Positions 21,204 to 44,744 of a stretch of DNA of 44,744 nucleotides are shown in pieces. The DNA comes from an uncultured Desulfovibrionaceae bacterium (GTDB lineage Bacteria > Desulfobacterota > Desulfovibrionia > Desulfovibrionales > Desulfovibrionaceae): the NCBI GenBank assembly GCA_964545305.1, contig CAZJFJ010000003.1, positions 1 through 44,744 of the forward strand, written 5' to 3'. How positions within the stretch are numbered: position 1 is the stretch's first letter; the number at the start of each line of letters is the position of its first letter. Made by a program: the position numbers and the translations under genes. The notes beneath the pieces were generated by a model, which was not told the origin of the DNA, searched no databases, and was given only the letters and a program-made list of their open reading frames with translations.

Positions 21204-21405
21204 GTACTGTTAATTTGCAAAATAATTAGTAATATTTTCTGCTAGTGAAATATTTTATTTACAATGGTTGATTCTTTGGATAAAAAGGAATTGAATGGGT
21301 TAGTGTTGGGCAGCTTGTTCTTAGAATGTTTATAAATATATGCTGCTCAGGGGTGTTTATCGCACCGCCAAATTTGGGATCCAGCGTTTATCAGTAAAAA
21401 TTGAT

Positions 21406-21453
21406 GACAGCTCCTGCTCCCGGGCAGGGGCTGTCCTTTTTTTGTCTTTTTTT
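21406..21453 (+). terminator. Strong intrinsic terminator hairpin inside the leader of the MFS gene (attenuator or sRNA 3' end candidate)
   Basis: GACAGCTCCTGC-TCCCGG-GCAGGGGCTGTC is a 12-bp stem with one G-U pair. CTTTTTTTGTCTTTTTTT follows. It ends 44 nt before ATG 21497. Confidence 0.65.
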
Positions 21454-21496
21454 ACTGCCGAAGCGCTTAACAATAAATAAGCAAGAGGAATATTCG

Positions 21497-22801
21497 ATGA
21501 GAAAAGGATGGCTAATTGCTTTTGCAGGCACGGGTCTTAACCTCATTTTGGGTGTTATTTATGCTTGGAGTGTATTCAAGGCCACCCTTGTAGCGCCGAT
21601 TGAGCAGGGAGGCTATGGTTGGACTGATACAATGGCCACCAGCCCCTATGCTTTCGCTATTGTTGTCTGGGCGATTTTGATGATCCCCGCAGGGCGCCTG
21701 CAGGACAAGTTCGGCCCCCGGATTATCGCCACTTTCGGCGCCCTGTCTCTTGGCCTGGGTTTGTTTGTCACCAGTTTCGCTTCCCCTGTGCCGGAAGGGG
21801 TGGACGCCCTGAGCCTCGGCTTTTGGGATCAGATCATGCTTGCATGGCCTGCAATGGTCGGTATCGGGATCTTCGCCGGCGGGGGGATGGGGCTTGGTTA
21901 TGCATGTCCCACACCGGCCGCCATCAAATGGTTCCCTCCCTCAATGAAAGGGCGGGCCACCGGGGTAGTTATTGCCGGCATGGGGTTTGCCACCGTGTAT
22001 ATCGCTCCCCTTGCCAGCCATTTGATCAAGACTTACGGCATTGTTTCCAGCTTTCAAATTTTGGCTGTGGGCTTCGCCATAGCCGGGGTTCTTTTCTCCC
22101 AGGTTCTGCGCAACCCGCCTGCGGGCTATGTGCCGGAGCCGGATCCTAAAGCGAACACCGCCCTTGCCAACACCGCCGCCAACGCCGGTATTGATCGCAC
22201 CTGGACCTATATGGTGAAAACTCCCATTTTCTATCTGATCTGGATCCAATTCGTGTCCGGAACCTCCGCGGGTCTGATGATTATCGGCAGCATTGCGGGT
22301 ATTGTTACCCTGCAATCCGGCGGAGTGATCGCGGCAGGTTTTATGTTCGCAGCCCTGCTTTCCTTGTTTAACGCTGCCGGGCGTATTTGCTCCGGGTACA
22401 TTTCAGACAAGCTTGGCGCGAACCGCACCTTGATGTTGGTATGCGGCATTCAGATTGCGGTGATGCTTGCCTTCCCGCACATGAGCACCTTGATAGGGTT
22501 TGCTGTTGTAACTGCGCTTTGCGGTTTTAACTACGGCTCGTGTATGCCTTTGTTCCCGACCATGACCGCCGGTTTTTGGGGCACAAAAAACCTTGGCATG
22601 AACTATGGAGTGCTTTATAGTGCATGGGGTGTTGCAGGGGTACTCTGCCCGGTGGTTAGCGGCTATATTAAAGATACCACCGGCAGCTACAACGATGCCT
22701 ATATCTTTGCTGCAGCCCTTCTTGCCGCCACAGTTCTGGTTGGGCTTGTGCGCGAGAAGTGGGGTGAAGCCCTCAGCCATCCGATCGGCTCAAATGCTTA
22801 G
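21497..22801 (+). CDS. MFS transporter, oxalate/formate antiporter (OFA) family-like
   Basis: ATG 21497 follows AGAGGA. N-terminus MRKGWLIAFAGTGLNLILGVIYAWSVFK. 12 TM-type hydrophobic segments. The GRLQDKFGPR loop motif is present. Confidence 0.8.
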   Translation: MRKGWLIAFAGTGLNLILGVIYAWSVFKATLVAPIEQGGYGWTDTMATSPYAFAIVVWAILMIPAGRLQDKFGPRIIATFGALSLGLGLFVTSFASPVPEGVDALSLGFWDQIMLAWPAMVGIGIFAGGGMGLGYACPTPAAIKWFPPSMKGRATGVVIAGMGFATVYIAPLASHLIKTYGIVSSFQILAVGFAIAGVLFSQVLRNPPAGYVPEPDPKANTALANTAANAGIDRTWTYMVKTPIFYLIWIQFVSGTSAGLMIIGSIAGIVTLQSGGVIAAGFMFAALLSLFNAAGRICSGYISDKLGANRTLMLVCGIQIAVMLAFPHMSTLIGFAVVTALCGFNYGSCMPLFPTMTAGFWGTKNLGMNYGVLYSAWGVAGVLCPVVSGYIKDTTGSYNDAYIFAAALLAATVLVGLVREKWGEALSHPIGSNA

Positions 22802-22819
22802 AGGCTTCCAGGCTGAATA

Positions 22820-22866
22820 AAAAGCAAAAGGCAGATTGGCGCAGCCGGTCTGCCTTTTGCTTTTTA
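22820..22866 (+). terminator. Rho-independent terminator
   Basis: AAAAGCAAAAGGCAGA (22820-22835) pairs with TCTGCCTTTTGCTTTT (22849-22864), then a T-run. Confidence 0.8.
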
Positions 22867-22906
22867 TAAAACTTGTTGTGAAATTTTGGAAACTGGAGTT
22901 ATTCAA

Positions 22907-24097
22907 ATGGTTAAAAACAGATACCTGATGCTTTTCCTTGCGTTCATAATCACTTTCTTTCTGGGTGTGCTTTACGCGTGGTCGGTTTTTGTAATTCCCC
23001 TGGAAAAGGCGTTCGGCTGGGTGCGTCCGGAAACCTCGCTCACTTTTACCTTTTTGATGGCGTTTTTCTGTCTGGGGATGCTTTTGAGCGGGCAGTTCAT
23101 TAAGAGGTTCGGCCCCTCCCGCACGGTGTTTCTGGGCGGGCTGCTTGGGGGAGCGGGTTTTTTCGGCGCTTCGTATACTTCCAGCCTTGTCTGGCTATAT
23201 GTCAGCTATGGGGTGATAGGCGGGTTCGGCATAGGGGTCGCCAATGTGGTTCTGACTTCAGTGATTCTTCGCTGGTTTGCAGACAAGCGGGGATTTGCCA
23301 GCGGAATTTTGACTGCGGGCCTGGCTCTGGGGGCTTTTTTCCTTGGCGCCAAAACTGCCCCTCATCTGATTGCGGGATTCGGCTGGGATGGAACTTTCCG
23401 TTTCTTGGGGATTTCGTACTGGGTAATTATTTGTCCTCTCTCATTTCTGGTCAGGTTTCCGGCTGCCGCTTCTGGCGGCAGTTCCGGGTCTTCCGCAGAA
23501 ATATGGGGTGTTGGGCTCAAGGAAATGCTTCGCAATCCCAGCGCATGGTATCTGATTTTCTGGCTTCTTTTCATCCACACCGGCGGGCTGATGATTATCG
23601 CGCACGTTTCACCCTATGTGGAAAGCCTGAATTTTACTCCCGCAGACGCGGCTCTGGCTATGGGCGTGCTTGCGCTGGCCAATGCGGCCGGCCGTTTTCT
23701 GTTTGGCTTCCTGCATGACAAGCTGGGAAGAAAACCCACCATGGTGCTAAGCTCTCTGACCATTGTAACGGGCCTTCTGGCTCTTGCCTGTCTGCCTGCC
23801 GATTTTGGCTACAACGCCCTGCTTGTGGGAGTGGTAATCACCGGTCTGGCCTATGGGGGAAGCATTCCCCAGCTGGCGGCCATGGTCAGTGCGTTTTTCG
23901 GCCCGAAGAACTTTACCACGAATTACGGCTTTGCGGCCTTGGCCAGCATGGCCGCCGCGATTTTGGGGCCTTATTTCGGTTCCAAGGTGCAGTTTGCATC
24001 AAGCTACAAGGAAGCGATCATCTGTGCCGCCGCGGTGTCCGGCATCAGCCTGCTGATGGCTATCTTGCTTAAAAATCCCAGACTGGAGCAAAAGTAA
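22907..24097 (+). CDS. MFS transporter, OFA family-like (paralog of 21497..22801)
   Basis: MVKNRYLMLFLAFIITFFLGVLYAWSVFVIPLEKAFGW and GQFIKRFGPSR. Same architecture as the upstream gene. Confidence 0.8.
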   Translation: MVKNRYLMLFLAFIITFFLGVLYAWSVFVIPLEKAFGWVRPETSLTFTFLMAFFCLGMLLSGQFIKRFGPSRTVFLGGLLGGAGFFGASYTSSLVWLYVSYGVIGGFGIGVANVVLTSVILRWFADKRGFASGILTAGLALGAFFLGAKTAPHLIAGFGWDGTFRFLGISYWVIICPLSFLVRFPAAASGGSSGSSAEIWGVGLKEMLRNPSAWYLIFWLLFIHTGGLMIIAHVSPYVESLNFTPADAALAMGVLALANAAGRFLFGFLHDKLGRKPTMVLSSLTIVTGLLALACLPADFGYNALLVGVVITGLAYGGSIPQLAAMVSAFFGPKNFTTNYGFAALASMAAAILGPYFGSKVQFASSYKEAIICAAAVSGISLLMAILLKNPRLEQK

Positions 24098-30476: not shown

Positions 30477-32090
30477 TCAGAATTGTTTTTTCTCTGCGGC
30501 TGCAATGCTGAGCCCCGCCTTGTTCAGCCCCTGCAAAATCAAAGCTGCGGCCTCATCACTGAGTGCCAGCGTGTGAACATACCGTAGCGGGTTTTGAGTG
30601 AAATCGGGCTGGATGTTCAGGAGCTCGTTCACAGCTTCCTTCGCTTCTTCAGTTTTGCCCAATTGCCCGAAAGCTGCGGCGCGGAGCATTGGGTCCCAGA
30701 AACATCCCGGAGTGTTCACAAGCAGGGCCTCGTTTGAAGCCAGCTCAAAATTTCCCGCCAGGTAATATTTCAGGTAGGGCACAATTCTGCCCCAGCTGGG
30801 CGAGCATGGGTTGAGCTCGCGGCAACGCTCCATAAGCGCGATGCCTTCATCAAAGTTTCCGGAAAGCCCTGTCAGCAGCCCGGTTGCCAGAATCATATAC
30901 GAATTGGCCGGGTTGAGAGGAATTACCTGGGCAATCGCCTTTTCAAACTGGGGCAGGTTGCGGCGCAGGAAGAAATTGAGGGCGAGCGCCCAGTATGCGG
31001 TTTGTGATGTTCCATCCAGGGCTATTGCGCGCAAGGCGAATTCCTGCGCCTTGTCCAGGGCGTTGGGAACGGTGTCGTAGCCAAGCTGATAGTCCGAGGC
31101 GTAAAGGTCGGCCAGAGTGGCCACAACCATCGGATTGTTCGGAGAAATGAGGATAAGTTGTTCCAGGGATTGTTTGGCGTGGAGAAACAGTTCCCGGTTG
31201 AACGTGGGCATCCAGTTGTGGTAGCTGAGCATCGTTTCATAGAACTCAAGATGTTCGTATTCCCGGCAGGACAGCTCTTGCATAAGTTTGCGGCGTATGG
31301 AGCCGAAGCTGTCTCCCACGCGGGAAACCAGGCGTTGGGCCATCTCTTCCTGAACTGCGAACAGGTTCCGGCCGCCTATCTTGGCGTCAAAACGTTCGGC
31401 CCAGATGTTGGTTCCGGTTGCCGCATCGGCCAGTTCGGCCCGCAGGCGGATGTGGTTGTTGTGAAGCTGTGCGCTGCCGTGCAGAATGAACTTTACGGCG
31501 AGTTTCTGGGCAATAACGTATAGAGGTTCGGTGCTGGGGTTGATGCAGCGGGCGGCATAGGAGCTCACGACGGACAAATCTTCAAACCGGGTGAGGGCAA
31601 GAGTCGTTTCATCGGCCAGACCTTCTATGAAATGAAGGTCGTCCGGGTTTTCGCTAAGGTTTGTGAAGGGAAGGACGGCAATGGCTATCTGGGCCAAAGC
31701 TTGTGGTTTGGGGGGGCATGGAAGCTGCGGGCTGGGTGGAGAATCCTCCAAAGCCTTTTCTATTCTACTGAAGATGGGGACATAGCCGCCTTTGGGCACG
31801 TCTATGCGCACCGGGCCGGGCTCGGGGGTTGAGAAATAATATTCCATTAGCCGGTTACGCAATTTGGCGGTTTCTGTTCTGACCACAGGATCGTGCAGGG
31901 GGTCGAAATTGGCGCCGCGTCCAAAAACAGTGGTCGCAATGGTATACGCCTTGAGCTGCCCGGCGTTGCCAGTCAGGGTTTCCTCCACAATAAAGCGGAA
32001 GAACTTCTTAAGGCGATCGGACGCGTTGAAGTTGCTGGCGTTCAGAATCAGCTCCAGCTGATTCTGAATTTCCTGGCTGGTTATCGGCAT
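30477..32090 (-). CDS. Putative regulator/sensor: wHTH-like N-terminal module + TolB-N-like (COG5616) domain + C-terminal TPRs
   Basis: The central block IAIAVLPFTNLSENPDDLHFIEGLADETTLALTRFEDLSVVS...KFILHGSAQLHNNHIRLRAELADAATGTNIWAERFD matches the remembered COG5616 consensus. The C-terminal half is TPR-like. The N-terminal 105 aa are paralogous to the ORF at 44257... The gene is divergent from the amidinotransferase gene. Confidence 0.7.
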   Translation of the reverse strand: MPITSQEIQNQLELILNASNFNASDRLKKFFRFIVEETLTGNAGQLKAYTIATTVFGRGANFDPLHDPVVRTETAKLRNRLMEYYFSTPEPGPVRIDVPKGGYVPIFSRIEKALEDSPPSPQLPCPPKPQALAQIAIAVLPFTNLSENPDDLHFIEGLADETTLALTRFEDLSVVSSYAARCINPSTEPLYVIAQKLAVKFILHGSAQLHNNHIRLRAELADAATGTNIWAERFDAKIGGRNLFAVQEEMAQRLVSRVGDSFGSIRRKLMQELSCREYEHLEFYETMLSYHNWMPTFNRELFLHAKQSLEQLILISPNNPMVVATLADLYASDYQLGYDTVPNALDKAQEFALRAIALDGTSQTAYWALALNFFLRRNLPQFEKAIAQVIPLNPANSYMILATGLLTGLSGNFDEGIALMERCRELNPCSPSWGRIVPYLKYYLAGNFELASNEALLVNTPGCFWDPMLRAAAFGQLGKTEEAKEAVNELLNIQPDFTQNPLRYVHTLALSDEAAALILQGLNKAGLSIAAAEKKQF

Positions 32091-32313
32091 TTTTTTTATT
32101 TTAGTTAACAGGATGGAATTTTTTTAAATATTAGAACTTCTTTTTGATATTTACAAGGGGCGGGAATTTAATCCTCAGCTTTTTCTTTTGTGTAGCCTAC
32201 ATATTGTTATGTCCTGTAATATTCTGTCAAAGCCTTCCCGCTTCCCTTAGCCTGCAATCATCGAAACAAACAAATACTCATTAAGCATTCATAAGATAAG
32301 GAGGTAGTGAGTA

Positions 32314-33456
32314 ATGGCTAAGATTGTTAATTCATGGAATGAATGGGATCCGCTGAAAAGAATAATTCTTGGCAGCGCATGGGGAACTCACCAGCCAAAG
32401 AGCGACATTTCCTGGGATTATGACGCTCCTACCAGGCCCGGCTGGTATGGCCGCATGCCTGAAGAAATGGAAGCCAAGGCGATTGAGCTGATGAACGGAT
32501 TCCAGAAGATTCTGGAGTCGCGCGGAGTGGTTGTTGACCGCCCGCAGCCTTTTGACAGCACCAAGAAAACCGTGACTCCCGACTGGGAATGTGAAGTCCA
32601 GCGCGGCTTCCAGCCTTGCCGCGACGTTTTCTTCTGCACCGGCAACGAAATCATGGAAGCGACCATGTCCATCCGTTCCCGCTGGTTTGAATACATTGCT
32701 TTCCGCGATATCCTTGAAAACTATTTCCACAACGACCCTGAATTCTCCTGGGTTGCCGCTCCCAAACCGCGCCTCACCGATCAAACCTTCGAGCATAACT
32801 GGTGGTTCAACTATAAGCATGTTTGGTCGAATGAAGTCAAGCGCGAACGGATGCTGAAGCGGCAGTGGCACACCACCAACAAGGAGCCTTTGTTTGACGC
32901 CGCAGACGGCATTCGTTTCGGCAAAGATATTTTCTGGAACGTTTCCGCCATTTCCAATGCTGCCGGAATAGACTGGCTGCGCCGCCACTTCAGCTCCCGC
33001 GGCCTGCGCCTGCACGAAATCCAGTTTGACGGCGATTATCACCATTGGCATATCGACGTATGCATCATGCCCCTGCGCCCCGGCCTTTGCATATACAATC
33101 CTTATTATATGTACCTCACTCCCCAGTTCGAAGAGCTTTTGAAAAAGAATGACTGGGAACTGATTCCCGCTGTTCCGCCTACCCATCAATACAATATGCG
33201 TATCGGCACCCTGAACGAGCGTGTGGGTCCCTACTGGATTTCCATGAACACCCTTTCCATCGATCCCAAGACCATGTGCATTGAAGCCCATGAAACCGGA
33301 TATCAGGAACAGATCAACAAGATGGGCATTGAAGTTATCCCGGTTGATTACGCCGAGCAGGTAGCTTTTGGCGGATCGCTGCATTGCTCCACTGTGGACG
33401 TACACCGCGAAGGCGGTTGCGAGGACTACTTCCCCAATCAGGTGGAAGGTTACTAA
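32314..33456 (+). CDS. Amidinotransferase, glycine amidinotransferase (AGAT/StrB1) family, paralog A
   Basis: RBS AAGGAGG. Blocks NSWNEWDPLK, GNEIMEATMSIRSRWFEY, FDAADGIRFGKDIF (catalytic Asp), HWHIDV (catalytic His) and GGSLHCSTVDV (catalytic Cys358, nt 33385-33387) align with remembered human AGAT blocks SYNEWDPLEE, GNEIIEAPMAWRSRFFEY, FDAADFIRAGRDIF, MHIDAT and GGGFHCWTCDV. Confidence 0.85.
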   Translation: MAKIVNSWNEWDPLKRIILGSAWGTHQPKSDISWDYDAPTRPGWYGRMPEEMEAKAIELMNGFQKILESRGVVVDRPQPFDSTKKTVTPDWECEVQRGFQPCRDVFFCTGNEIMEATMSIRSRWFEYIAFRDILENYFHNDPEFSWVAAPKPRLTDQTFEHNWWFNYKHVWSNEVKRERMLKRQWHTTNKEPLFDAADGIRFGKDIFWNVSAISNAAGIDWLRRHFSSRGLRLHEIQFDGDYHHWHIDVCIMPLRPGLCIYNPYYMYLTPQFEELLKKNDWELIPAVPPTHQYNMRIGTLNERVGPYWISMNTLSIDPKTMCIEAHETGYQEQINKMGIEVIPVDYAEQVAFGGSLHCSTVDVHREGGCEDYFPNQVEGY

Positions 33457-33492
33457 TTAGTTTAATACCGGAAAGCCTCCCCGGTTTAACTT

Positions 33493-33530
33493 GTCACCGG
33501 AGTGCCTTGCAACGGGCGCACTCCGGTGAC
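33493..33530 (+). other. 13-bp perfect-stem hairpin between the amidinotransferase and symporter genes
   Basis: GTCACCGGAGTGC (33493-33505), a 12-nt loop, then GCACTCCGGTGAC (33518-33530). No T-run follows. Confidence 0.6.
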
Positions 33531-33618
33531 ACACGGACAGGCGGGGATGGACGGTGCTACGGCGGCTGCCCGGTGGTTAGGGGTTTGTCGGGTGATGCCA
33601 AGGAGGCAATGCAGTAAT

Positions 33619-35171
33619 ATGGATAATAATCTCATCTATGGCGGAGGCTTGGCTGCCTATCTGGGACTGATGATTCTGATTGGCTATCTTGTTAAAACAG
33701 AATCAAAACTTCGGAAGACTATCTGGTTGGGGGGCGCAGTTTCGGCCTGTTTTACAACTCGGGCACCCTGGCCGCCTGTTTTCTTGGCGGCGGGATTCTG
33801 ATTGGGGCTTCCGGCAAAATATATTCCGTGGGCATATGGGACGACACATTCCTTTCGGGAGGCGCGCTGATTCTTATCGGCGGTTTCCTGATGTGCCTGT
33901 TCATGGCGGGCACCTTCTACATGCCCAAGCTCTGGCGCCTAAAATTTATTTCTCTGGGCGATCTTTTCTACACCCGCTTCGGGCGGCGTACGGGCCTTCT
34001 CTCCTCCGTGCTGATTTCTGTGAACTTCCTGTTCTGGGTAGCGGTGCAGATCCTGGTGTTTGGAAAAATCGTGAACGCGATTCTCGGATGGGATCTCCAG
34101 ATGTCAATTATTCTGGCCATGGCGGTCATCTGCACCTATACCATGCTGGGCGGCCTGTTTGCGGTGTGCTTTACCGACATCGTGCAGGTAACCGTAACCG
34201 TGCTTGGCGTTTGCGCCCTGGTGCCATACAGCATTGCCGCTGTGGGCGGCTGGGAAGTTTTTACCGTTTCCTACGACCCGGAACTGATTAAAATGATTCC
34301 CGGCACAATGGACATTGACCCGTGGCTTGCCTGGTTCGCCGCTTTTGCCGCTGTGGGCCTGGGCGGAATAGTCAGCCCGGACTTGATGCAGCGCGCTTTT
34401 TCTGCGAAGTCTCCGGGAATTGCCCGCACATCCGCGTATGTGGCCTGTTCCATAACCTTTGGCGTGTCGGTGCTGATTATCATCTGCGCCCTGGCAGGTC
34501 AGATTCTGGTTACAAACGGAACTCTCACCGATCCCTATTTGATTGGCGACCCGGCCGCCGGGCTGTCCGCCGACCCCGAACTGATCTTGCCGGTGATGAG
34601 CAAGGCTATTCTGCCGCTGCCGCTGGTGGTGCTGTTCCTGGGCGCGGGCCTGTCCGCGGTGATGAGCGCTGCGGCCACCGCCCTGCTGGCGCTTGCGGGC
34701 ATGATTTCCATTAATATCTACAGAGATATCATCAACCCTGAAGCTACGGAAAAACAGCAGGTGTTTGTGACCCGGGTGCTTGTTTTGGGCATGGGCATTT
34801 TTGCAACCATTGTGGCCCTTTATTACCCCAGCGCCGCAGAGCTTTCGGCGTTCGGCTTCGACCTCATCCTGGCTTCGCTGCTTGGTGCGATGACCCTGGG
34901 GCTGTTCTGGAAAAAGGCCAACTCGGTGGGCGCGGCCGCAGGTATGATTGCCGGTATCCTGTTCAGGGTTATCGGTGCGGCGCTAGACAGCGGGGAGTTC
35001 AGCCTGATTGCCATGGCGTACCCCGAACACTGGTACTTTTTTACCCTGTTCTCGCCTGTAATCAGCTTTGCAACAATTATAGCGGTGTCTCTTGCCACCC
35101 AAAAGAATTGTCCTCCAATTGAGCTTAAAGAAAGGCTGCACGAGTTCAAAGAAGTGGAAGCCGCTGCATAG
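33619..35171 (+). pseudogene. Sodium:solute symporter (SSS family), paralog A, interrupted by a 1-nt frameshift in an A-run
   Basis: The N-terminus MDNNLIYGGGLAAYLGLMILIGYLVK is in frame 1 (ATG 33619). The rest (EDYLVGGRSFGLFYNSG...; ORF track 33828..35171) is in frame 3, which is open from 33696. Adding one A to AAAA (33694-33697) restores GYLVKNRIKTSEDYLVGGRSF, compared with GYIVKNKIKVTEDYLVGGRKF in paralog B. Confidence 0.8.
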
Positions 35172-35193
35172 CAGCCGCTTTCAGGCAGGATTG

Positions 35194-35231
35194 AAAAAGG
35201 CTCCGCTTTTGCGGAGCCTTTCTGTTTTTTT
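35194..35231 (+). terminator. Rho-independent terminator after symporter A
   Basis: GGCTCCGC-TTTT-GCGGAGCC followed by TTTCTGTTTTTTT. Confidence 0.85.
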
Positions 35232-35252
35232 GTCTTGCTTCAGAGGGCGGCC

Positions 35253-35404
35253 CTAAAGCAGATTAATTTTGAAACATCCCTTTCGGTGCTTAATTTGCTG
35301 TCTTCATCCGCATGACTCAAAGATTCGTCTACGGCTGAAGCCCCGGCGGGAGTGGACCCCGCCTGCGGGGCGGACGGAGCGAGCAGCGCCGCCAGAGCAT
35401 TTTA
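35253..35404 (+). repeat. Repeat family 2 copy (variable GC-rich core)
   Basis: Starts CTAAAGCAGATTAATTTTGAAAC and ends GCCAGAGCATTTTATC. These are the same terminal motifs as 5556..5685. Confidence 0.45.
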
Positions 35405-35434
35405 TCAAAAATAACTTTTCAAGGTTAAAATGCC

Positions 35435-35947
35435 CTAGCCGTGAGTAATCTCGATCTTGCGGGACTCTTCCTTTACCTGCTCCCTGCGGGGCAAGGAAAT
35501 GTCGAGCACTCCCTGTTTATAAGAAGCTGTGATTTCATCGGCCTTTACATCTTCAGGCATGGTTACAACCCGGCGGAAAGAACCGAAGCTTCTTTCCACA
35601 TGGTAAACGCCTTTTTCTTCGTCCTTCTCTTCTTTTTCCTGCTTTTTCTCGCCACTGATAATCAGGCTGTTTTCCTTCATTTCAACAACAATATCTTTTT
35701 CTTCCACTCCCGGAATTTCAACGGAAATATGCCATGCCTTTTCGTCTCCGGTGATATTCATTCTGGGCTGAATGAACCCTTCCTGAACAGATTTGCCGCG
35801 CGGGAGGGCCGGGGCAAAGGCGGTCATAAGGCCAAAAGGAAATGCGGTGGAGTCCAGCATTTCATCAAACATTCTGTCCAATTCCGAGCCTAAAAACATC
35901 CGTTTTGCCGGGTTTTCATATTTTTTTACATTAATTTTGTTGGTCAT
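35435..35947 (-). CDS. Hsp20/alpha-crystallin family small heat-shock protein
   Basis: ATG 35947 follows GGAGG. The alpha-crystallin core is AWHISVEIPGVEEKDIVVEMKENSLIISGEK...SFGSFRRVVTMPEDVKADEITASYKQGVLDISLP. Confidence 0.9.
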   Translation of the reverse strand: MTNKINVKKYENPAKRMFLGSELDRMFDEMLDSTAFPFGLMTAFAPALPRGKSVQEGFIQPRMNITGDEKAWHISVEIPGVEEKDIVVEMKENSLIISGEKKQEKEEKDEEKGVYHVERSFGSFRRVVTMPEDVKADEITASYKQGVLDISLPRREQVKEESRKIEITHG

Positions 35948-36335: not shown

Positions 36336-37028
36336 ATGGACACGGGTTTATTATCCATGATTGGTCAGGCCACCTTGGGGGCCAAGCTGCTGCTTTTGCT
36401 GCTTTTGTTGATGTCTGTGGTGAGCTGGGGGCTCATTTTTCAGAAGTGGCGTTCGCTGAAGGCCGCGAAGCAAAAAGCGGAAACAGGCCTTACCCGTTTT
36501 GAAAACTCGCGCAACCTGCGCGAGGCGGTAAGCTCGCTTGGCGGCGATTCCCTGTCTCCCTTATATTTTGTTGCGGAATTCGGGGTGAATGAATTCAACC
36601 GGGTTAAAGAGCTTCAAAATACCGATGATGTTGTGGTGGATAACGTGCGCCGTGCGCTTGGGCAGGGAGTGGGGGAAGAAATGATTCGGCTTTCCCAGGG
36701 GCTCTCGTTTCTCGCCACCACCGGCAACACCGCTCCGTTCATAGGCCTTTTGGGCACGGTATACGGCATTATGCACGCCTTCCATAATATAGGCATGCAG
36801 AAAAGCGCTTCGCTGGCATCGGTTGCCCCCGGCATCTCCGAGGCCCTTGTGGCCACCGCTGTGGGGCTTTTCGTGGCCATTCCGGCTACCGTCGCCTTTA
36901 ACTCGTTTAATAGCCGCTTAAGCGACCTTGAGGTTCATCTTACAAACTTCAGCTCGGCGTTTCTCAACCGCGTGCAGCGTGAAATAAACGCTCCCAAAAA
37001 CACCACTACAGCAGCGGGCACAAAGTAG
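36336..37028 (+). CDS. tolQ: TolQ (MotA/TolQ/ExbB proton channel family)
   Basis: N-terminal TM followed by FQKWRSLKAAKQKAE. Conserved block TAPFIGLLGTVYGIMHAF...VAPGISEALVATAVGLFVAIPA. Confidence 0.8.
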   Translation: MDTGLLSMIGQATLGAKLLLLLLLLMSVVSWGLIFQKWRSLKAAKQKAETGLTRFENSRNLREAVSSLGGDSLSPLYFVAEFGVNEFNRVKELQNTDDVVVDNVRRALGQGVGEEMIRLSQGLSFLATTGNTAPFIGLLGTVYGIMHAFHNIGMQKSASLASVAPGISEALVATAVGLFVAIPATVAFNSFNSRLSDLEVHLTNFSSAFLNRVQREINAPKNTTTAAGTK

Positions 37029-37035
37029 GTAAGCC

Positions 37036-37482
37036 ATGGAAACCCCAAGCAGCCATCACAGCAACTTTGTTTCGCAAATCAACGTCACCCCCTTTGTTGA
37101 CGTTATGCTGGTGCTCCTGATTATTTTTATGATAACCGCTCCCATGATGACCCAGGGCCTGGACGTCAAATTGCCCACAACCCAGGCGGTGGATTCGCTT
37201 CCCTCCGATGAACCTACAGTGACCATGACCATCAAAGCCGACAGCACCATCTGGCTTGACCAGTATCAGGTGGAAACGTTGGAAAACCTTACCGCCATGC
37301 TTGAGGAAAACGTGATCAAACCCGGCAAGACGCTGTTTATTCAGGCCGACAAGAATGTGAACTACGGCGTGGTGGTGGATATGATGGGCCGCATCAAAAT
37401 GGCCGGAATTGAAAACGTGGGTCTGGTGGCCGACAAGGTAGAGCCCGCGCTTCCGTCCACCACGGATAAGCCTAAGAAATAA
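37036..37482 (+). CDS. tolR: TolR (ExbD/TolR family)
   Basis: INVTPFVDVMLVLLIIFM (conserved Asp in the TM helix), followed by LFIQADKNVNYGVVVDMMGRIKMAGI. Confidence 0.85.
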   Translation: METPSSHHSNFVSQINVTPFVDVMLVLLIIFMITAPMMTQGLDVKLPTTQAVDSLPSDEPTVTMTIKADSTIWLDQYQVETLENLTAMLEENVIKPGKTLFIQADKNVNYGVVVDMMGRIKMAGIENVGLVADKVEPALPSTTDKPKK

Positions 37483-37515
37483 CAAGGCCGCCATGTACGC
37501 TTTTAACCCAAGGGT

Positions 37516-38526
37516 TTGGGCATGCGCTTCCGCACTAGTTTAACTGTTTCCTTTTTTCTGCATATCGCCATAATTTTGCTGCTTCTGGCAGGAGCTGCAA
37601 TTATGCCTTCCGTGCGGCTGGACATCCCGCAAAATCAGGTGACGATCATTAACCTTGACGGCCTTGAGGGCGGAACTGAAGCTCCGGTAATTCCCGTGAA
37701 ATCCAAGGGGGCCAGCAGCAAAAGCAGCCCGCAGGAAAAAGCTTCCACCGAGCAGGCGGAGGCTAAGGCGGAAGCAAAGTCCAAACCTGAACCCAAGCCT
37801 GAACCCAAGCCGAAGGAAGAACCCAAGCCAAAGATCGAGGAGCCGGATCATCCCAAGGTGCTGGAAGAGCCTAAGCCCAAAGAAAAGCCCAAGGTTGAGG
37901 AACCCAAGCCTGAACCCAAGCCGAAGGAAGAACCCAAACCAAAGGATGAGCCAAAGCCCAAGCCCAAGGATGAACCTAAGCCCAAAGATGATTCTAAGGA
38001 AAAGCCCAAGGATGAGGCCAAGGATAAATCCAAGGACGAGGGCAAGGCCAAAGAGGATAAGCCCAAGGATGCCAAGTCCAAGGACGGTTCGGACACCAAG
38101 GGTGATTCCAAGACGAAGTCAAAGAGCAAGGGCGTAGGCGGAGATGAGGGCCTTGACGATGTGCTCAGCGCCATCCAGTCCCAGGTCGATTCGCGGGATA
38201 AAACCGGAGGCGGATCGGGAACCGGGCAAGGGCAGGGCCACGGCAGCGCCGTGGGCATCCAGGCTTCTTATGCCGACACCATCAAGGCGATAGTGCAAAG
38301 CGCCTGGTCATATTCCGGGCGTGCCGACCGTGCGTCGCTTTCCGCGGTTGTGCTGCTTCAGCTCGATTCCAACGGCAAAATTCTTGGCTACCAGATTATC
38401 AGAAGCTCGGGCGATCCGACTTTTGATGGCACTTTGAAGACCGCGATAGCCAAATCTGAAAATAAATTGCCGGCGCCGCCCAACGCCAGCATGCAGAATC
38501 TGGAAATCACATTCTACGACCAGTAG
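37516..38526 (+). CDS. tolA: TolA-like protein (TM anchor, Lys/Pro/Glu-rich spacer, TonB_C/TolA C-terminal domain)
   Basis: TTG 37516, or ATG 37522 (MRFRTSL...). One TM helix. A KPEP-type spacer of about 110 aa. The C-terminal domain is YADTIKAIVQSAWSY...ILGYQIIRSSGDPTFDGTLKTAIAKS. Confidence 0.75.
   Translation: MGMRFRTSLTVSFFLHIAIILLLLAGAAIMPSVRLDIPQNQVTIINLDGLEGGTEAPVIPVKSKGASSKSSPQEKASTEQAEAKAEAKSKPEPKPEPKPKEEPKPKIEEPDHPKVLEEPKPKEKPKVEEPKPEPKPKEEPKPKDEPKPKPKDEPKPKDDSKEKPKDEAKDKSKDEGKAKEDKPKDAKSKDGSDTKGDSKTKSKSKGVGGDEGLDDVLSAIQSQVDSRDKTGGGSGTGQGQGHGSAVGIQASYADTIKAIVQSAWSYSGRADRASLSAVVLLQLDSNGKILGYQIIRSSGDPTFDGTLKTAIAKSENKLPAPPNASMQNLEITFYDQ
37789..37944 (+). repeat. In-frame 45-nt direct duplication within the TolA spacer
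   Basis: GAACCCAAGCCTGAACCCAAGCCGAAGGAAGAACCCAA(G/A)CCAAAG occurs at 37789-37833 and at 37900-37944 with 1 mismatch. The offset is 111 nt (37 codons). Confidence 0.85.
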
Positions 38527-40085: not shown

Positions 40086-41045
40086 TTAGGCAACCTTGGC
40101 CCCGGCTTCTTTTCCTCCGGCGGGCTCAAGCGGGTTTTTTTCAGATTCCCTTTTTTTATCCTTGATTGAAATAATCATCACCACCGCACCGATAACGAGC
40201 ACTGCTCCGATTCCGCCCATAAAGGTGAAGGCCTCTCCCCACCAAAAGAAGGCGAATACAGCGGCCAGAAACGGCTCCGAAGCGGTTTCGAACACCGACA
40301 CCCTGGTGGCGGGAAGGCGTTTGAGCCCCTCGCAGAAGCAGAGATAGGCAAACCAGTTGCAGATAAGGCCCAGCGCCGCTAAAGATAGCCAGACTTCCAG
40401 GGTCTTGTCCGGCATGAAACTTACAAACGGGAACATACACAATGCGCCGACCGGCAAAATGTGCATATACAGAGAAACCGGGGATACGTTATCGTTCAGG
40501 TATTTTTTGGCTACAAGCGAGTGCAGGGAGAACAGGAACCCGGAACCTAGCCCTGCCGCCATTCCGATCATGGAGCTGCCTTCAGGCAGCCCTCCGCCCG
40601 ACAAGGCGATCATGCCGGCCCCGGCAATTGCGAGAAAAATGGCGAATATTTTGCTGCCGCCCATAGCTTCCTTGAAGAACAGGTACGACCATATGGCCAC
40701 CCAGATGGGGGCGGTGTTGTTAAGGACCGAAGTGGTAGCCGCCCCGGATTTATGCACGGCGAACATGTACATGAAAAAGAGAATTCCCACGCCGGGAATG
40801 CCGAAAAGGGAAAATACGGCTCTTTGCCTGGGAGTAATTTTCCAGGCTCCGATAATCATGCCGTGGACGATGAAGAACGCGCCGCCGAAAAAGGCGCGCC
40901 AAAACGCGCACTCAACCGGGCTTACCCCTTGCGCCAGGGGGTAACGGGTAACCGGGCCGATCAGGCTGAATGAAAGGGCGGCGAGAAAAACCATTAAATA
41001 GCCGATCAGGGCTGTACGGTTATTTTCTGGGGTTTGAGCCAGCAT
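40086..41045 (-). CDS. EamA/DMT superfamily transporter
   Basis: 319 aa with ten hydrophobic helices in a 5+5 arrangement and a charged C-terminal tail. Lies 113 nt downstream of amidinotransferase B on the same strand. Confidence 0.75.
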   Translation of the reverse strand: MLAQTPENNRTALIGYLMVFLAALSFSLIGPVTRYPLAQGVSPVECAFWRAFFGGAFFIVHGMIIGAWKITPRQRAVFSLFGIPGVGILFFMYMFAVHKSGAATTSVLNNTAPIWVAIWSYLFFKEAMGGSKIFAIFLAIAGAGMIALSGGGLPEGSSMIGMAAGLGSGFLFSLHSLVAKKYLNDNVSPVSLYMHILPVGALCMFPFVSFMPDKTLEVWLSLAALGLICNWFAYLCFCEGLKRLPATRVSVFETASEPFLAAVFAFFWWGEAFTFMGGIGAVLVIGAVVMIISIKDKKRESEKNPLEPAGGKEAGAKVA

Positions 41046-41158: not shown

Positions 41159-42346
41159 TTAATATCCTGCAATCTGCTTGGGGAAATAATCCTCACAACC
41201 GCCTTCGCGGTGAACGTCCAGTGTTGTGCAATGGAGCATGCCCCCGAAGCGGAACACTGCGTCATATTTAACGGGCATCACTTCAAAGCCCATTTTGTCG
41301 AACTGCTCGCAGAATGGTTTTTCATTTGCATCCACACAAACCATATTGGGGCTGAGAGAGAGAATGTTCATGGAAATCCAGTTGGTTCCGTTTTGTCCTT
41401 GCCCCTTGACAGTATTGCACAGGGTCAGTTTGTCGGTCCAGTGAAATATGGGGTCGGTGGCCGGAATCAATTCCCATTCGTTGATCTTCATCAGTTCCAG
41501 GAATTCAGGGGTCATGGGCGGCTTGCCGGGGCAGAACATGGCAAGGCCGGGGCGAAGCAAGTTCAGCGAACAGTCGATATGCCACGGGCGGAAGAACTTG
41601 CTTACCGAGGTGTCGAACGCGATTTTATGCACCCGGATTCCCTGCCTGGCGAGGTAGCGCCTGACCCAGTCGAATCCTTTTTTATTGGTTACTGCGGAGG
41701 GTTGCAGGAAAATGTCCTTGCCCGCGCGGGCTGCGTCCGCGGCGTCCCAGAGCGGTTCTTTTTCCGTGATCTGGAATTGACCGTTGCGCTGCATTTTCGC
41801 TTTGTCGTCATCATCCCAGACATTGTCGTAATTATAGTAGTAGTTTTTCACATACGACTCGTCAGTGAGCCTGGGTTTGGGGGCGGATGTCCAGATGAAG
41901 TCGGGGTCTTCCTCATACCATTTCTCAAACAACGGGCGCAGGGCGAGATATTCGAACCAGCGGGAACGCAGGGAGCATGTGGCCTCAATAATCTCATTGC
42001 CCACGGGAAGGAACAGGTCGCGGGGGTTGGAAATGCCGCGCTGATTGATCTGGGTCCAATCGGGCGTGGAAACGGCCTGAACCCGGAGCATGGACTCGTG
42101 CGGAACAACCCTGTCCACAACGGCTCCTTGCTTGTTCATGATTTTTGCGAATTCTTCCTGCTGCTCGCAGGCGAGTTGCACCATTTCTTCAGGAAATGGC
42201 CCCCATGTTCCAAACGGAAAATCTCCGTTTACATTGTTATAATGCCATGCCGGTTCCGGGGCGGGAATCTGGGTGCCCCTCGCGGTTCCAAGCACCACCC
42301 TTTTTAGCGGATCCCATTCGTTCCAGCTGTTTATAATCTTTGCCAT
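41159..42346 (-). CDS. Amidinotransferase, glycine amidinotransferase (AGAT/StrB1) family, paralog B
   Basis: ATG 42346 (MAKIINSWNEWDPLKRV) follows GGAGAG. Blocks GNEIIEATCSLRSRWFEY, WDAADAARAGKDIF, PWHIDCS and GGMLHCTTLDVHREGGCEDYFP. By eye roughly half the residues are identical to paralog A, including the same C-terminal tail. Confidence 0.85.
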   Translation of the reverse strand: MAKIINSWNEWDPLKRVVLGTARGTQIPAPEPAWHYNNVNGDFPFGTWGPFPEEMVQLACEQQEEFAKIMNKQGAVVDRVVPHESMLRVQAVSTPDWTQINQRGISNPRDLFLPVGNEIIEATCSLRSRWFEYLALRPLFEKWYEEDPDFIWTSAPKPRLTDESYVKNYYYNYDNVWDDDDKAKMQRNGQFQITEKEPLWDAADAARAGKDIFLQPSAVTNKKGFDWVRRYLARQGIRVHKIAFDTSVSKFFRPWHIDCSLNLLRPGLAMFCPGKPPMTPEFLELMKINEWELIPATDPIFHWTDKLTLCNTVKGQGQNGTNWISMNILSLSPNMVCVDANEKPFCEQFDKMGFEVMPVKYDAVFRFGGMLHCTTLDVHREGGCEDYFPKQIAGY

Positions 42347-42418: not shown

Positions 42419-43975
42419 TTAAACTGCCCCGGCCTTTTCCCTTATTTGGTCGATGGTCACGGGGTTGTCGTCTGCATCGTAATGGAAGCCATACTCATTA
42501 GACGGATTTGCTTTCTGAGTGGCCAGGCTGACGGTGATGGTAACGGCGAAAGCCACGATCGGGCCCAGCAGCGTGTATATGTACCAGCCGGGAGCGGATG
42601 AGCACACACCCTCAAGGGTGAAGCCGTTGGCTATTCCCGCCGGGATGATGCGGATGAGAAGACCGGAGATGATGCCCGCCACCGCCCCGTAGCCGTTTGT
42701 CTTTTTCCAGTACATGCCCAAAGTCATGCAGGCGAAGAGGCTGGACATGATCAGGTCGAACCCGAACGCAACCAGCAGGAATACGTATTTAAGGTTCAAA
42801 GCTGCATAAAGGGCCATGCCGGAAAAAATGATTACACATATGCGGCTCAGGAAAAGCAGTTGCTTGTCATCGATGTCCGGCTTCACAAAGTCCTTGATAA
42901 TGTTTTTGCTCATCATCCCGCTCATGGCAAGAAGCGCGGAGGAGGCTGCGCCCATTACCGCAGAGAGGCTCGCTCCGATGAACAGGATCATCAGGGGCAG
43001 GGGCAGGAATTCCTTGACCATTACCGGAACGATAAGCTCCATATCGCCCTGGAGCATTGATTCGGGGATGATGCCGGTGTCGGTCATGACCAGGCCTACC
43101 AAGGCGAGAAGAATCATGATGATGCTCAATACTGTTTTGATGAGCGCGGCCACAATAGCCGAGTTGCGGGCCACGGCGGCGGTTTTCGCCGCGAACGCGC
43201 GCTGCATCAGATCGGGGCTTACCACCGAACCTATGCCCACAACCGCCCAGCACGCGAGCCATGCCAGCCATACATGGCCATCGGCCACCTGTGGGAAAAC
43301 ATGGGTTCTTTCTGCGGGAACGGCGGCTATAAACGCATCCCAGCCGCCTACAAGAGGAAGGGCGAGAGGCAGAAGCACTACCACGCCAATGGTGACCAGG
43401 GCTACCTGGATCATGTCGGTGACCATTACGGCCCAAAGCCCGCCCATGGAGGTATACACGCAGATGATGGCTATGCCGAGGAGCGCTGACCAGAACAGAT
43501 CCCAGCCCATGAACACTGTGCATATTTTGGCGAAAACCAGAATTTGCACTGCTACCCAGAATACAAAAGTCATAACGGTTACAATGCTTACGGTTATTCC
43601 CGTGGGTTTGCCGAAGCGGTTATAAAAATAATCCCCCAAAGAGAGCAGCTTCAGGCGCCACAGCTTCGGCATGTAAAAGAAGCCTGCGATGAGAAGGCAG
43701 AAGATGCCGCCCAGCGAAATTGCGGAGCCGAACATGGCCGAGTCGTTCCACACGCCCATGCCGTAAGTGGCCCCGGGCAAGGAAAGTATCAGCGAGCCTC
43801 CCAGAAAGCAGGCCGTGAGGGCGGGCGCGTTGAATAAAAGTGTAAATTTACGGCCTCCGACCAGATAGTCTTCGGTGACCTTGATTTTGTTTTTGACGAT
43901 GTAGCCCACAGACAGCATGGCTGCGAAGTAAATGCCCACTCCAATATAAATTGCCGCAAGATGTCCTGTTTCCAT
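42419..43975 (-). CDS. Sodium:solute symporter (SSS family), paralog B, intact
   Basis: ATG 43975 (METGHLAAIY) follows AAGGAGAAAA. EDYLVGGRKF, FYMPKLWRLKLLSLGDYFYNRFG, GGLWAVMVTDMIQV and PDLMQRAFAAK are collinear with paralog A. Confidence 0.88.
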   Translation of the reverse strand: METGHLAAIYIGVGIYFAAMLSVGYIVKNKIKVTEDYLVGGRKFTLLFNAPALTACFLGGSLILSLPGATYGMGVWNDSAMFGSAISLGGIFCLLIAGFFYMPKLWRLKLLSLGDYFYNRFGKPTGITVSIVTVMTFVFWVAVQILVFAKICTVFMGWDLFWSALLGIAIICVYTSMGGLWAVMVTDMIQVALVTIGVVVLLPLALPLVGGWDAFIAAVPAERTHVFPQVADGHVWLAWLACWAVVGIGSVVSPDLMQRAFAAKTAAVARNSAIVAALIKTVLSIIMILLALVGLVMTDTGIIPESMLQGDMELIVPVMVKEFLPLPLMILFIGASLSAVMGAASSALLAMSGMMSKNIIKDFVKPDIDDKQLLFLSRICVIIFSGMALYAALNLKYVFLLVAFGFDLIMSSLFACMTLGMYWKKTNGYGAVAGIISGLLIRIIPAGIANGFTLEGVCSSAPGWYIYTLLGPIVAFAVTITVSLATQKANPSNEYGFHYDADDNPVTIDQIREKAGAV

Positions 43976-44256: not shown

Positions 44257-44744
44257 ATGGATGAATTGAACAAACCCGACAACATATCTTCGTCACTAAC
44301 TCAAGCTGTAAGGCGGGAGCTGGAGCGCATTCTGGCGAGCAAGGAATTTTACGCATCGCGCAGGTTCAGCAATTTTCTGACCTATATTGTAGAGGAAACC
44401 CTGGCCGGACGGGGGCCTGAAATCAAGGCCTACAATATTGCCCTGGAGGTGTTCAGGCGTCCGGCGGATTTCGACCCTCAAACCGACTCCGTTGTCAGGG
44501 TGGAAGCGACCAAGTTGCGCAACCGGCTTGAAAATTACTATCGTTATAACCCCAAGGAAGGGGAAATCAGAATTTCCATTCCCAAAGGGCATTACACTGT
44601 AGCGTTTTCATTAGGAAAAATGCGGGAAAATTTCAGCTCCGGCGCGGCATTCCCCGCAGGGGGGCCAGCCCAAGGAGAAGGGACGAAGAGCGGGGCTGTT
44701 TCTTCCAATTTTCCGGAGGCCCACCCTGCCGGCAGCGCCGAACC
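44257..44744 (+). CDS. Paralog of the 30477..32090 regulator/sensor (N-terminal part; runs off the window)
   Basis: The frame is open from ATG 44257 to the window end, so it is not in the ORF track. My translation is MDELNKPDNISSSLTQAVRRELERILASKEFYASRRFSNFLTYIVEETLAGRGPEIKAYNIALEVFRRPADFDPQTDSVVRVEATKLRNRLENYYRYNPKEGEIRISIPKGHYTVAFS.... It aligns without gaps to aa 6-108 of the 30477..32090 product. Confidence 0.7.
   Translation, partial: MDELNKPDNISSSLTQAVRRELERILASKEFYASRRFSNFLTYIVEETLAGRGPEIKAYNIALEVFRRPADFDPQTDSVVRVEATKLRNRLENYYRYNPKEGEIRISIPKGHYTVAFSLGKMRENFSSGAAFPAGGPAQGEGTKSGAVSSNFPEAHPAGSAE

Follow-up and report, generated by a model that had tools for sequence, protein, structure and literature searches.

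The window, a stretch of 44,744 nucleotides from an uncultured Desulfovibrionaceae bacterium, contains two gene cassettes (A and B). Each of them combines a homologue of the arginine:glycine amidinotransferase AGAT with a sodium:solute symporter (SSS). By sequence and structure comparison, the two enzymes (AT-A and AT-B) are members of the AGAT/StrB1 family (EC 2.1.4.x). Judged from its gene context, this known enzyme family probably acts here in an undescribed, transporter-linked role in catabolism or salvage. Tentatively, and with a probability slightly short of even, each cassette is read as a separately controlled module for the inducible uptake of a guanidino acid and the transamidination of its amidino group onto ornithine. 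One of the two modules in the window is complete and the other one has a probably dead importer.

AT-A (positions 32314–33456, plus strand, 380 aa) starts with an ATG preceded by the Shine-Dalgarno sequence AAGGAGG (32298–32304, plus strand, found by inspection of the sequence) and was assigned by homology, alignment and a structural model. Its paralogue AT-B (41159–42346, minus strand), assigned by homology, shares 47% identical residues with AT-A and has 395 aa when counted from a start reading MAKI, which is also the choice of the gene callers. The preliminary description of this DNA had called the 380-aa product collinear with AGAT/StrB1-type amidinotransferases, and the searches agree with it. 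In a phmmer search of all PDB sequences, residues 5–373 of AT-A match human AGAT (1jdw) with an E-value of 1e-56 and 33% identity. Further matches extend from end to end and comprise SxtG (3e-53), HsvA (6e-46) and StrB1 (8e-45). An AlphaFold2 model of AT-A built on 26 homologues (pLDDT 86.4, pTM 0.88) has the five-fold beta-beta-alpha-beta propeller of the family. Foldseek aligns this model to AGAT with TM-scores of 0.85/0.90 (1jdw, 33% identity), and ranks 1–7 are occupied by AGAT, SxtG, HsvA and StrB1 (TM 0.80–0.90, 30–34% identity). The hydrolases DDAH, ArgZ/AgrE, arginine deiminase and NnhA reach a TM-score of about 0.55 at 12–16% identity. The predicted fold is thus nearer to the transferases than to the hydrolases.

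The active site is retained. Asp104 and Asp248 of AT-A are the aligned counterparts of AGAT Asp170 and Asp305, which we take to bind the guanidinium group. Asp195, His246 and Cys358 align with Asp254, His303 and Cys407, the catalytic triad of AGAT (PMC3684758), so that the triad and the motifs quoted for it in the preliminary description are indeed present. In the clade to which AT-A and AT-B belong, the residues corresponding to AGAT Asp170, Asp254, His303, Asp305 and Cys407 are invariant (90 of 90 aligned sequences). Enzymes of this family work by a ping-pong mechanism in which the amidino group is transferred via an S-amidino-cysteine.

The positions that govern specificity are different. 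Residues 300 and 302 (AGAT numbering) are Asn/Met in AGAT and Phe/Ser in CyrA (PMC3684758), and are His/Trp in AT-A and Arg/Trp in AT-B. Both enzymes carry insertions in the 300- and 355-loops and an Arg at AGAT position 312 that is conserved in the clade. Since residues 300/302 and 322 (the latter is described below) are unlike those of AGAT and CyrA, AT-A and AT-B are not filed as Arg:Gly enzymes and, by their sequences, are not orthologues of these. The search with the PF02274 model that the preliminary description had proposed returned neither enzyme at E < 0.01, and no other Pfam family matched AT-A or AT-B at E ≤ 0.01. A precomputed PF02274 match exists for a few homologues of the clade. 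The miss results from the limited sensitivity of the model and is no evidence against homology, which is not in doubt.

Stop-free antisense open reading frames (ORFs) are located opposite AT-A (32332–33405, minus strand, 357 codons) and opposite AT-B (41210–42307, plus strand, 365 codons). An equivalent shadow ORF is found opposite homologues elsewhere (cluster c8, eight genome loci, e.g. L004, L011, L016 and L035), and it beat the true enzyme gene in naive ORF calling. These shadow ORFs are probably an effect of codon composition rather than a gene.

In cassette A, the SSS-A gene (33619–35171, plus strand) follows AT-A and is itself followed by an intrinsic terminator (35196–35231, plus strand). 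The predicted 11-bp stem of this terminator (35196–35221) precedes a T-run and stands out against shuffled sequences (z = -4.3). Cassette B is located about 6 kb away on the minus strand with the opposite order of enzyme and symporter genes. Its symporter SSS-B (42419–43975, minus strand, 518 aa) is intact and 48% identical to SSS-A. PF00474, the model of the sodium:solute symporter family (TC 2.A.21), matches both the C-terminal part of SSS-A (E 2e-36) and SSS-B (E 7e-38), and there is a superfamily match to TIGR00813. Hence, both the strong terminator and the repetition of the enzyme-transporter pair in a different order, as given in the preliminary description, were found again. Three residues of AT-B differ between strains. 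An exact-protein look-up yielded no record for AT-B or SSS-B.

The linkage of enzyme and transporter is conserved. In all Desulfovibrionaceae relatives examined (loci L001, L033, L087 and L089–L094), the enzyme gene is linked to an SSS gene and to a gene for a TolB-like/TPR protein. The gene order is variable (AT-SSS, SSS-AT or SSS-AT-AT) and the linkage is kept at protein identities of 45–80%. SSS-A and SSS-B belong to a subfamily that is found mainly in Desulfovibrionaceae and has no named member. This subfamily is narrow, with ~95 clusters at ≥ 41% identity to SSS-B, followed by a fall to about 30%. Each of the three members sampled (73, 47 and 49% identity) adjoins one or two enzyme genes, and a TPR gene is found beside each pair. 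In the Desulfovibrionaceae loci L020, L012 and L011, which belong to the AT-B subclade, a TRAP transporter (DctPQM) takes the place of the SSS. TRAP transporters and their binding proteins handle substrates bearing a carboxylate or sulfonate, and the exchange therefore points to such a substrate.

For a comparison outside this group, 80 species-representative loci with homologues from other lineages or species were inspected within 5 kb of the enzyme gene. An SSS gene is present in ten of these loci (Dehalococcoidia, Desulfobacterales and others), whereas roughly one to two would be expected by a rough estimate. Some transporter gene (SSS, TRAP component or ABC components) is present in 37. 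The SSS proteins of the other lineages are just 25–27% identical to SSS-B and were thus recruited independently. On this comparative evidence, the pairing is more than chance and the functional coupling suggested in the preliminary description holds: the adjacency is kept in all sampled relatives from the Desulfovibrionaceae and turns up again in other phyla, there with distantly related SSS genes. No named cultured carrier of the module was found among the protein-cluster records.

The symporter is not the only partner of the enzyme, as had been assumed at first. Both cassettes face divergently transcribed paralogues of one TolB-like/TPR protein, and a transporter gene of the EamA type follows AT-B. 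TPR-A (30477–32090, minus strand, 537 aa, with Pfam TPR matches) diverges from AT-A. TPR-B (44257–44744, plus strand) diverges from SSS-B and is cut by the end of the window after its N-terminal 162 codons. Homologues flank enzyme and SSS genes in L001, L033, L087, L089/90, L091/92 and L093/94. The TolB-like/TPR core is also present in proteins with an N-terminal adenylate cyclase, a Trans_reg_C winged helix or a kinase, which marks the protein as a signaling scaffold. A role as sensor or regulator of the cassette is plausible. The N-terminal 110 residues of TPR-A adopt a confident fold in the AlphaFold2 model (pLDDT 91.5). This domain has no significant match in Pfam or, by Foldseek, in the PDB, where the weak best match is an OmpR-type domain (probability 0.38, E 3). 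The EamA/DMT-family transporter (40086–41045, minus strand, PF00892 match) is located 3' of AT-B and is a candidate for the exporter of the product. The exact-protein look-up found it on one 1.9-kb contig only. In L033, L012 and L011, genes of the AT-B clade likewise have an EamA homologue behind them, and in L020 another DMT-type gene takes this position.

Inspection of the AT-rich divergent promoter region of cassette A (32091–32313, plus strand), which includes the ribosome-binding site of AT-A, revealed sigma-70-like matches only. A common operator of both divergent promoter regions was rejected, as they share no word of ≥ 10 nt and only AT-rich 8–9-mers. Between AT-A and SSS-A there is an inverted repeat, GTCACCGGAGTGC...GCACTCCGGTGAC (33493–33530, plus strand), with perfect 13-bp arms and without a T-run. 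The folding of this spacer is only modestly above that of shuffled sequences (z = -1.95), and the repeat may be a hairpin for mRNA processing or stability or a protein-binding site. The window has no Rfam match at the gathering score, guanidine riboswitches included, and a search of positions 31900–33700 at E ≤ 1 gave nothing except a spurious lncRNA match. Control by a riboswitch, e.g. a guanidine riboswitch, was rejected for want of Rfam support.

The symporter of cassette A needs a closer description. The preliminary description had placed an SSS transporter 3' of AT-A. A PF00474 gene is located there, but it is frameshifted, and the ORF 33828–35171 represents only its C-terminal 447 codons. 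The true start is the ATG at 33619, which has its own AAGGAGG and lies in another frame that runs into a stop after 60 codons. By comparison with SSS-B, a -1 frameshift was placed within GTTAAAACAG, in the A-run 33694–33697. Adding one A to SSS-A restores an ORF of 517 aa reading ...YLVKNRIKTSEDYLVGGRSFG... at this site. SSS-B is an intact ORF and SSS-A is not. The whole of cassette A including the lesion recurs in L081–L086, which are six independent metagenome assemblies from different samples, with 0–3 mismatches in 2858 nt. In these assemblies, gene callers cut SSS-A into pieces of 60 and 426 aa. As the identical lesion is found six times, it is a real mutation fixed in the population, and a sequencing error is excluded. 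Programmed frameshifting was rejected on inspection too, since no slippery heptamer of the form X XXY YYZ is found near GTT AAA ACA and the orthologues carry one A more. In L087, whose enzyme is 92% identical, the SSS is intact and its N-terminus is exactly as predicted. It is also intact in L093/L094 and L001 (enzyme 82% identical). The lesion amounts to one base in an otherwise intact gene and is therefore recent.

Base-for-base identity of cassette A is observed in several assemblies, and its flanks vary by small insertions or deletions (35171–35435 and 37516–38526, compared with L081–L083). These comprise 5 nt past the terminator and 9 nt in the Pro/Glu/Lys-repeat region of a TonB-like protein.

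AT-A and AT-B belong to a large clade, with 2053 clusters at 90% identity (E ≤ 1e-10) and at least 588 confirmed loci in species-representative genomes. Its members come from Anaerolineae, Dehalococcoidia, Aminicenantes, Desulfobacterota, Acidimicrobiia, SAR11 and roseobacters and share 45–55% identity with AT-A, compared with about 33% for AGAT. Current labels read 'glycine amidinotransferase' (KEGG K00613) or even 'serine/threonine protein kinase'. The latter name, used by NCBI for the clusters P0090, P0112, P0119 and P0430, is an evident misannotation; JGI has 'glycine amidinotransferase' for them.

The neighbors of the enzyme genes point to arginine and ornithine. Flanking ORFs of the 80 loci were clustered and then annotated. 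The most frequent neighbor, c1, is a P-loop protein of 446 aa (18 loci), followed by an L-lysine-6-transaminase (LAT)-family aminotransferase (14), ornithine carbamoyltransferase (OTC, 11 loci, 577 bits on NF003286), carbamate kinase (CK, 9) and Lrp regulators (8). Creatininase-family (6), creatinase/M24-family (3) and agmatinase-family proteins (2) are also present and fit the theme of guanidino compounds. The c1 protein, of about 446 aa, is labeled 'GTPase', is weakly similar to cyclic-2,3-diphosphoglycerate (cDPG) synthetase and is encoded beside arcB/arcC. ArcE has been described in the same terms, with a 'GTPase' label, weak similarity to cDPG synthetase and a place beside arcB/arcC (PMC11032458). 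ArcE is an ADP-forming arginine synthetase, which converts arginine to citrulline with a gain of ATP (PMC11032458). An ArcE-like, OTC or CK gene is located within 5 kb in 23 of the 80 loci. These are distributed over many branches of the enzyme tree and include the branch sister to AT-A and AT-B. One example from that branch is L025 (Desulfobacteraceae UBA2156), with a sigma-54 regulator, OTC, CK, an ArcE-like protein, the enzyme and an SSS. Operons with a sigma-54 regulator, OTC, CK, the ArcE-like 'GTPase', the amidinotransferase homologue and an SSS were seen in L025, L026, L009, L015, L028, L016 and L018. The transcarbamylase scores as a true OTC (577 bits, compared with 281 for putrescine carbamoyltransferase), which fits arginine and citrulline as intermediates. 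By their gene content, the operons with a catabolic-type OTC, CK and ArcE-like gene indirectly support Arg/Orn as the pair of co-substrates. The simplest explanation is an enzyme that forms arginine by moving the amidino group of an imported guanidino compound to ornithine, with an ArcE/OTC/CK set that regenerates the ornithine.

Within the clade, positions 300/302 and 322 and the 355-loop vary by subclade and tandem paralogues are frequent (L002, L045), which suggests that the family is diversified over several substrates. In Anaerolineae loci (L002, 8001–11615; L045, 622–9161; L013, L017 and L034), two or three paralogues stand in tandem or in a cluster, differ in their specificity residues and adjoin ABC transporters, Lrp regulators and creatininase-family genes. 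The homologues of SAR11 (L057, L062, L070, L072) and Planktomarina (L071, L074) keep the AGAT-like Arg322 and Ser354/355. SAR11 and roseobacter homologues adjoin ABC transporters, FAD monooxygenase or creatinase-family genes. A preprint on a bloom metatranscriptome counted them, solely by KEGG assignment, as 'GATM' converting taurine to taurocyamine.

The mechanism proposed for the cassettes combines these observations. The SSS importer would take up a small zwitterionic or anionic guanidino compound together with Na+. Most likely this substrate is a guanidino acid, e.g. guanidinoacetate, guanidinopropionate, guanidinobutyrate or taurocyamine. Through the Cys-His-Asp triad, the amidino group would become covalently bound to Cys358 as an intermediate. 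From there it would pass to L-ornithine, presumably the partner in this direction of transfer, and L-arginine and the de-amidinated amine would be released. In cassette B the amine may leave via the EamA transporter. Arginine would serve as a nitrogen source and, where they are encoded, ArcE, OTC and carbamate kinase would turn it back into ornithine with a gain of ATP. The substrate may be sensed, and the module regulated, by the divergent TolB-like/TPR protein.

It is possible, although rather doubtful, that guanidino compounds are processed by an undescribed 'ornithine-carrier' route, with the clade as a whole providing its entry enzyme. In such a route the clade enzyme would convert guanidino-X and ornithine to arginine and X-NH2. 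ArcE would then form citrulline, NH3 and ATP from arginine, ADP and Pi, and OTC would split citrulline with Pi into ornithine and carbamoyl phosphate. Carbamate kinase would finally convert carbamoyl phosphate and ADP to ATP, NH3 and CO2. The paralogues would differ in the guanidino acid to which they are adapted, and the Desulfovibrionaceae cassettes would be a front end for uptake and salvage. If this is true, each guanidino group would bring anaerobes as much as 2 ATP and 2 NH3, and neither O2 nor metal hydrolases would be needed.

Several observations weigh against transamidination onto ornithine. The direction of transfer is not fixed by the sequence. AGAT Arg322, presumably a ligand of the α-carboxylate, is replaced by Tyr in AT-A and by Lys in AT-B, and binding of Arg/Orn can therefore not be taken for granted. 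A tblastn search with representatives of ArcE-like proteins, OTC, carbamate kinase and LAT gave no match in the window or in loci L081–L094. All functional support is genomic and the window is devoid of pathway partners, while the prediction is directly testable at the level of the family. The c1 protein is putatively ArcE-like, being matched to ArcE (Thermococcus TK2200) by description and context. No DNA-binding domain was detected in the TPR protein, neither by Pfam (E ≤ 10, N-terminal 125 aa) nor by AlphaFold2 and Foldseek. Literature searches for a characterized catabolic or transporter-linked amidinotransferase led to biosynthetic enzymes and, for marine metagenome-assembled genomes, to KEGG-based 'GATM' labels only. 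They gave no characterized orthologue or clade member, and thus no sign of an already characterized orthologous group, which would have refuted the preliminary description. Finally, the SSS-A gene is, by its sequence, probably dead in this organism. The truncated protein would miss the first helices of the LeuT-type core and is regarded as inactive. Cassette A may be decaying, and with its importer lost by the frameshift, cassette B is the sole complete module here.

It might be concluded from this lesion that cassette A (32314–35171) is a decaying duplicate or relic without current function and that only cassette B matters, which would be compatible with any of the other models. The frameshift deprives SSS-A of its first transmembrane helices and is shared, as a fixed change, by six assemblies from different samples. 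The enzyme gene, on the other hand, is uninterrupted and has all catalytic residues and a strong Shine-Dalgarno sequence, the damage to the otherwise intact transporter gene is confined to a single base, and AT-A could use a substrate brought in by SSS-B or another carrier. A relic is thus quite unlikely. That enzyme and transporter are neighbors by chance and serve unrelated processes is extremely improbable. Their coupling is deduced from gene linkage, but this linkage survives rearrangements at 45–80% protein identity in Desulfovibrionaceae, and the pairing arose anew with the 25–27% identical SSS genes in ten of the 80 loci where roughly one to two were expected by rough estimate, so that the comparative data already contradict coincidence.

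Transfer in the biosynthetic direction is unlikely, but it is the direction used by all characterized members of the family (AGAT, CyrA/AoaA, SxtG, StrB1 and HsvA). Here, an imported amine or amino acid (glycine, taurine, beta-alanine or gamma-aminobutyrate, GABA) would be amidinated from arginine, and the product would be kept as a solute or exported via EamA. The exporter-type gene 3' of AT-B agrees with this, as do the reversibility of ArcE, which can form arginine from citrulline (PMC11032458), and the LAT-family aminotransferase and aldehyde dehydrogenase of some loci, which could consume the ornithine formed. However, downstream tailoring or biosynthetic genes are missing, the neighbors are of the catabolic type (ArcB-like OTC, CK, creatininase-, creatinase- and agmatinase-family proteins, with Lrp and sigma-54 regulators), and a guanidino solute would cost fermentative or sulfate-reducing anaerobes ATP and nitrogen. 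The clade could also be hydrolytic, with water attacking the S-amidino-Cys to give urea and the amine. The enzyme would then be a metal-free 'guanidino-acid amidinohydrolase' or a deiminase-like variant, which releases nitrogen from imported guanidino compounds or from arginine. The superfamily is rich in Cys-dependent hydrolases of the same fold (DDAH, ADI, ArgZ/AgrE and NnhA in the Foldseek list), the substrate-binding positions are remodeled with insertions in the 300- and 355-loops, and the neighboring genes for LAT and aldehyde dehydrogenase recall an arginase-type route. Against this stand the distance of the hydrolases (TM about 0.55, 12–16% identity) compared with the transferases (TM 0.8–0.9, 30–34%), the fact that urease and urea-carboxylase genes were not seen among the conserved neighbors, and the OTC/CK/ArcE partner set, which is more sensible if arginine is formed. 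Hydrolysis is therefore very unlikely, and transamidination of an imported guanidino acid onto ornithine is the preferred reading.

Other genes of the window were inspected as well. Between the cassettes (36336–38526), genes for ExbB/TolQ, ExbD and the TonB-like repeat protein are followed by one for a FliL-domain protein. Upstream (21401–24097) there are two adjoining MFS transporters, a sigma-54 response regulator and a PitA/PhoU-like pair. No tie of the ExbB/TolQ-TonB-like-FliL or MFS/PitA/PhoU-like genes to either cassette was found.

Guanidino compounds such as guanidinoacetate, creatine, taurocyamine, guanidinobutyrate and homoarginine are metabolites rich in nitrogen and occur in abundance in animals, urine and marine invertebrates. 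To our knowledge, their microbial breakdown proceeds by metal ureohydrolases or creatinase. If the proposed route is true, transamidination is a new way to harvest guanidino nitrogen and, with ArcE, OTC and CK, also energy under anoxia. The clade is present in SAR11, roseobacters, Chloroflexota, Aminicenantes and Desulfobacterota, and its function thus affects how creatine, taurine and arginine metabolism are read from metagenomes. A link of ArcE-type arginine catabolism to an amidinotransferase is unmentioned in the ArcE papers: the two that were consulted (one of them PMC11032458) do not refer to amidinotransferases.

Compared with known systems, the cassettes share individual parts with each of them. 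AGAT/GATM (1JDW) and CyrA/AoaA have the same fold, collinearity over the full length, the Asp-His-Cys triad and both guanidinium-binding Asp residues. AT-A and AT-B differ from them by forming a separate clade with other specificity residues and loop insertions, and by a context of transporters instead of creatine or toxin biosynthesis. In StrB1 (streptomycin), SxtG (saxitoxin), HsvA (the Erwinia polyamine amidinotransferase) and AmtA (phaseolotoxin homoarginine), arginine is the amidino donor. The first three are homologous to AT-A (E 1e-45 to 1e-53), and AmtA is set beside them by description only. These enzymes are encoded in biosynthetic or virulence clusters, whereas the cassettes described here contain importer, exporter-type and sensor-type genes and no tailoring enzymes. 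The symporters share PF00474 with PutP and PanF, which are the best curated matches of SSS-A and SSS-B, but they score far below every equivalog cut-off (119 vs 515 bits for PutP).

Among catabolic systems, the agmatine deiminase pathway (AguA, putrescine carbamoyltransferase and CK, with an agmatine/putrescine antiporter) likewise imports a guanidino compound other than arginine and channels the guanidino carbon into carbamoyl phosphate. AguA is a Cys-dependent entry enzyme of the same superfamily. Unlike the enzymes discussed here, it is a hydrolase, and its ureido product is passed to a dedicated transcarbamylase, whereas the neighbor in the clade operons is a true OTC. The arcABC-arcD and ArcE-ArcB-ArcC pathways (PMC11032458), none of whose genes are present in the window, resemble the clade operons of other phyla, which likewise comprise uptake, an entry enzyme and an ATP-yielding carbamoyl-phosphate route. 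To this scheme the clade adds an amidinotransferase homologue as entry enzyme and a Na+ symporter in place of the Arg/Orn antiporter.

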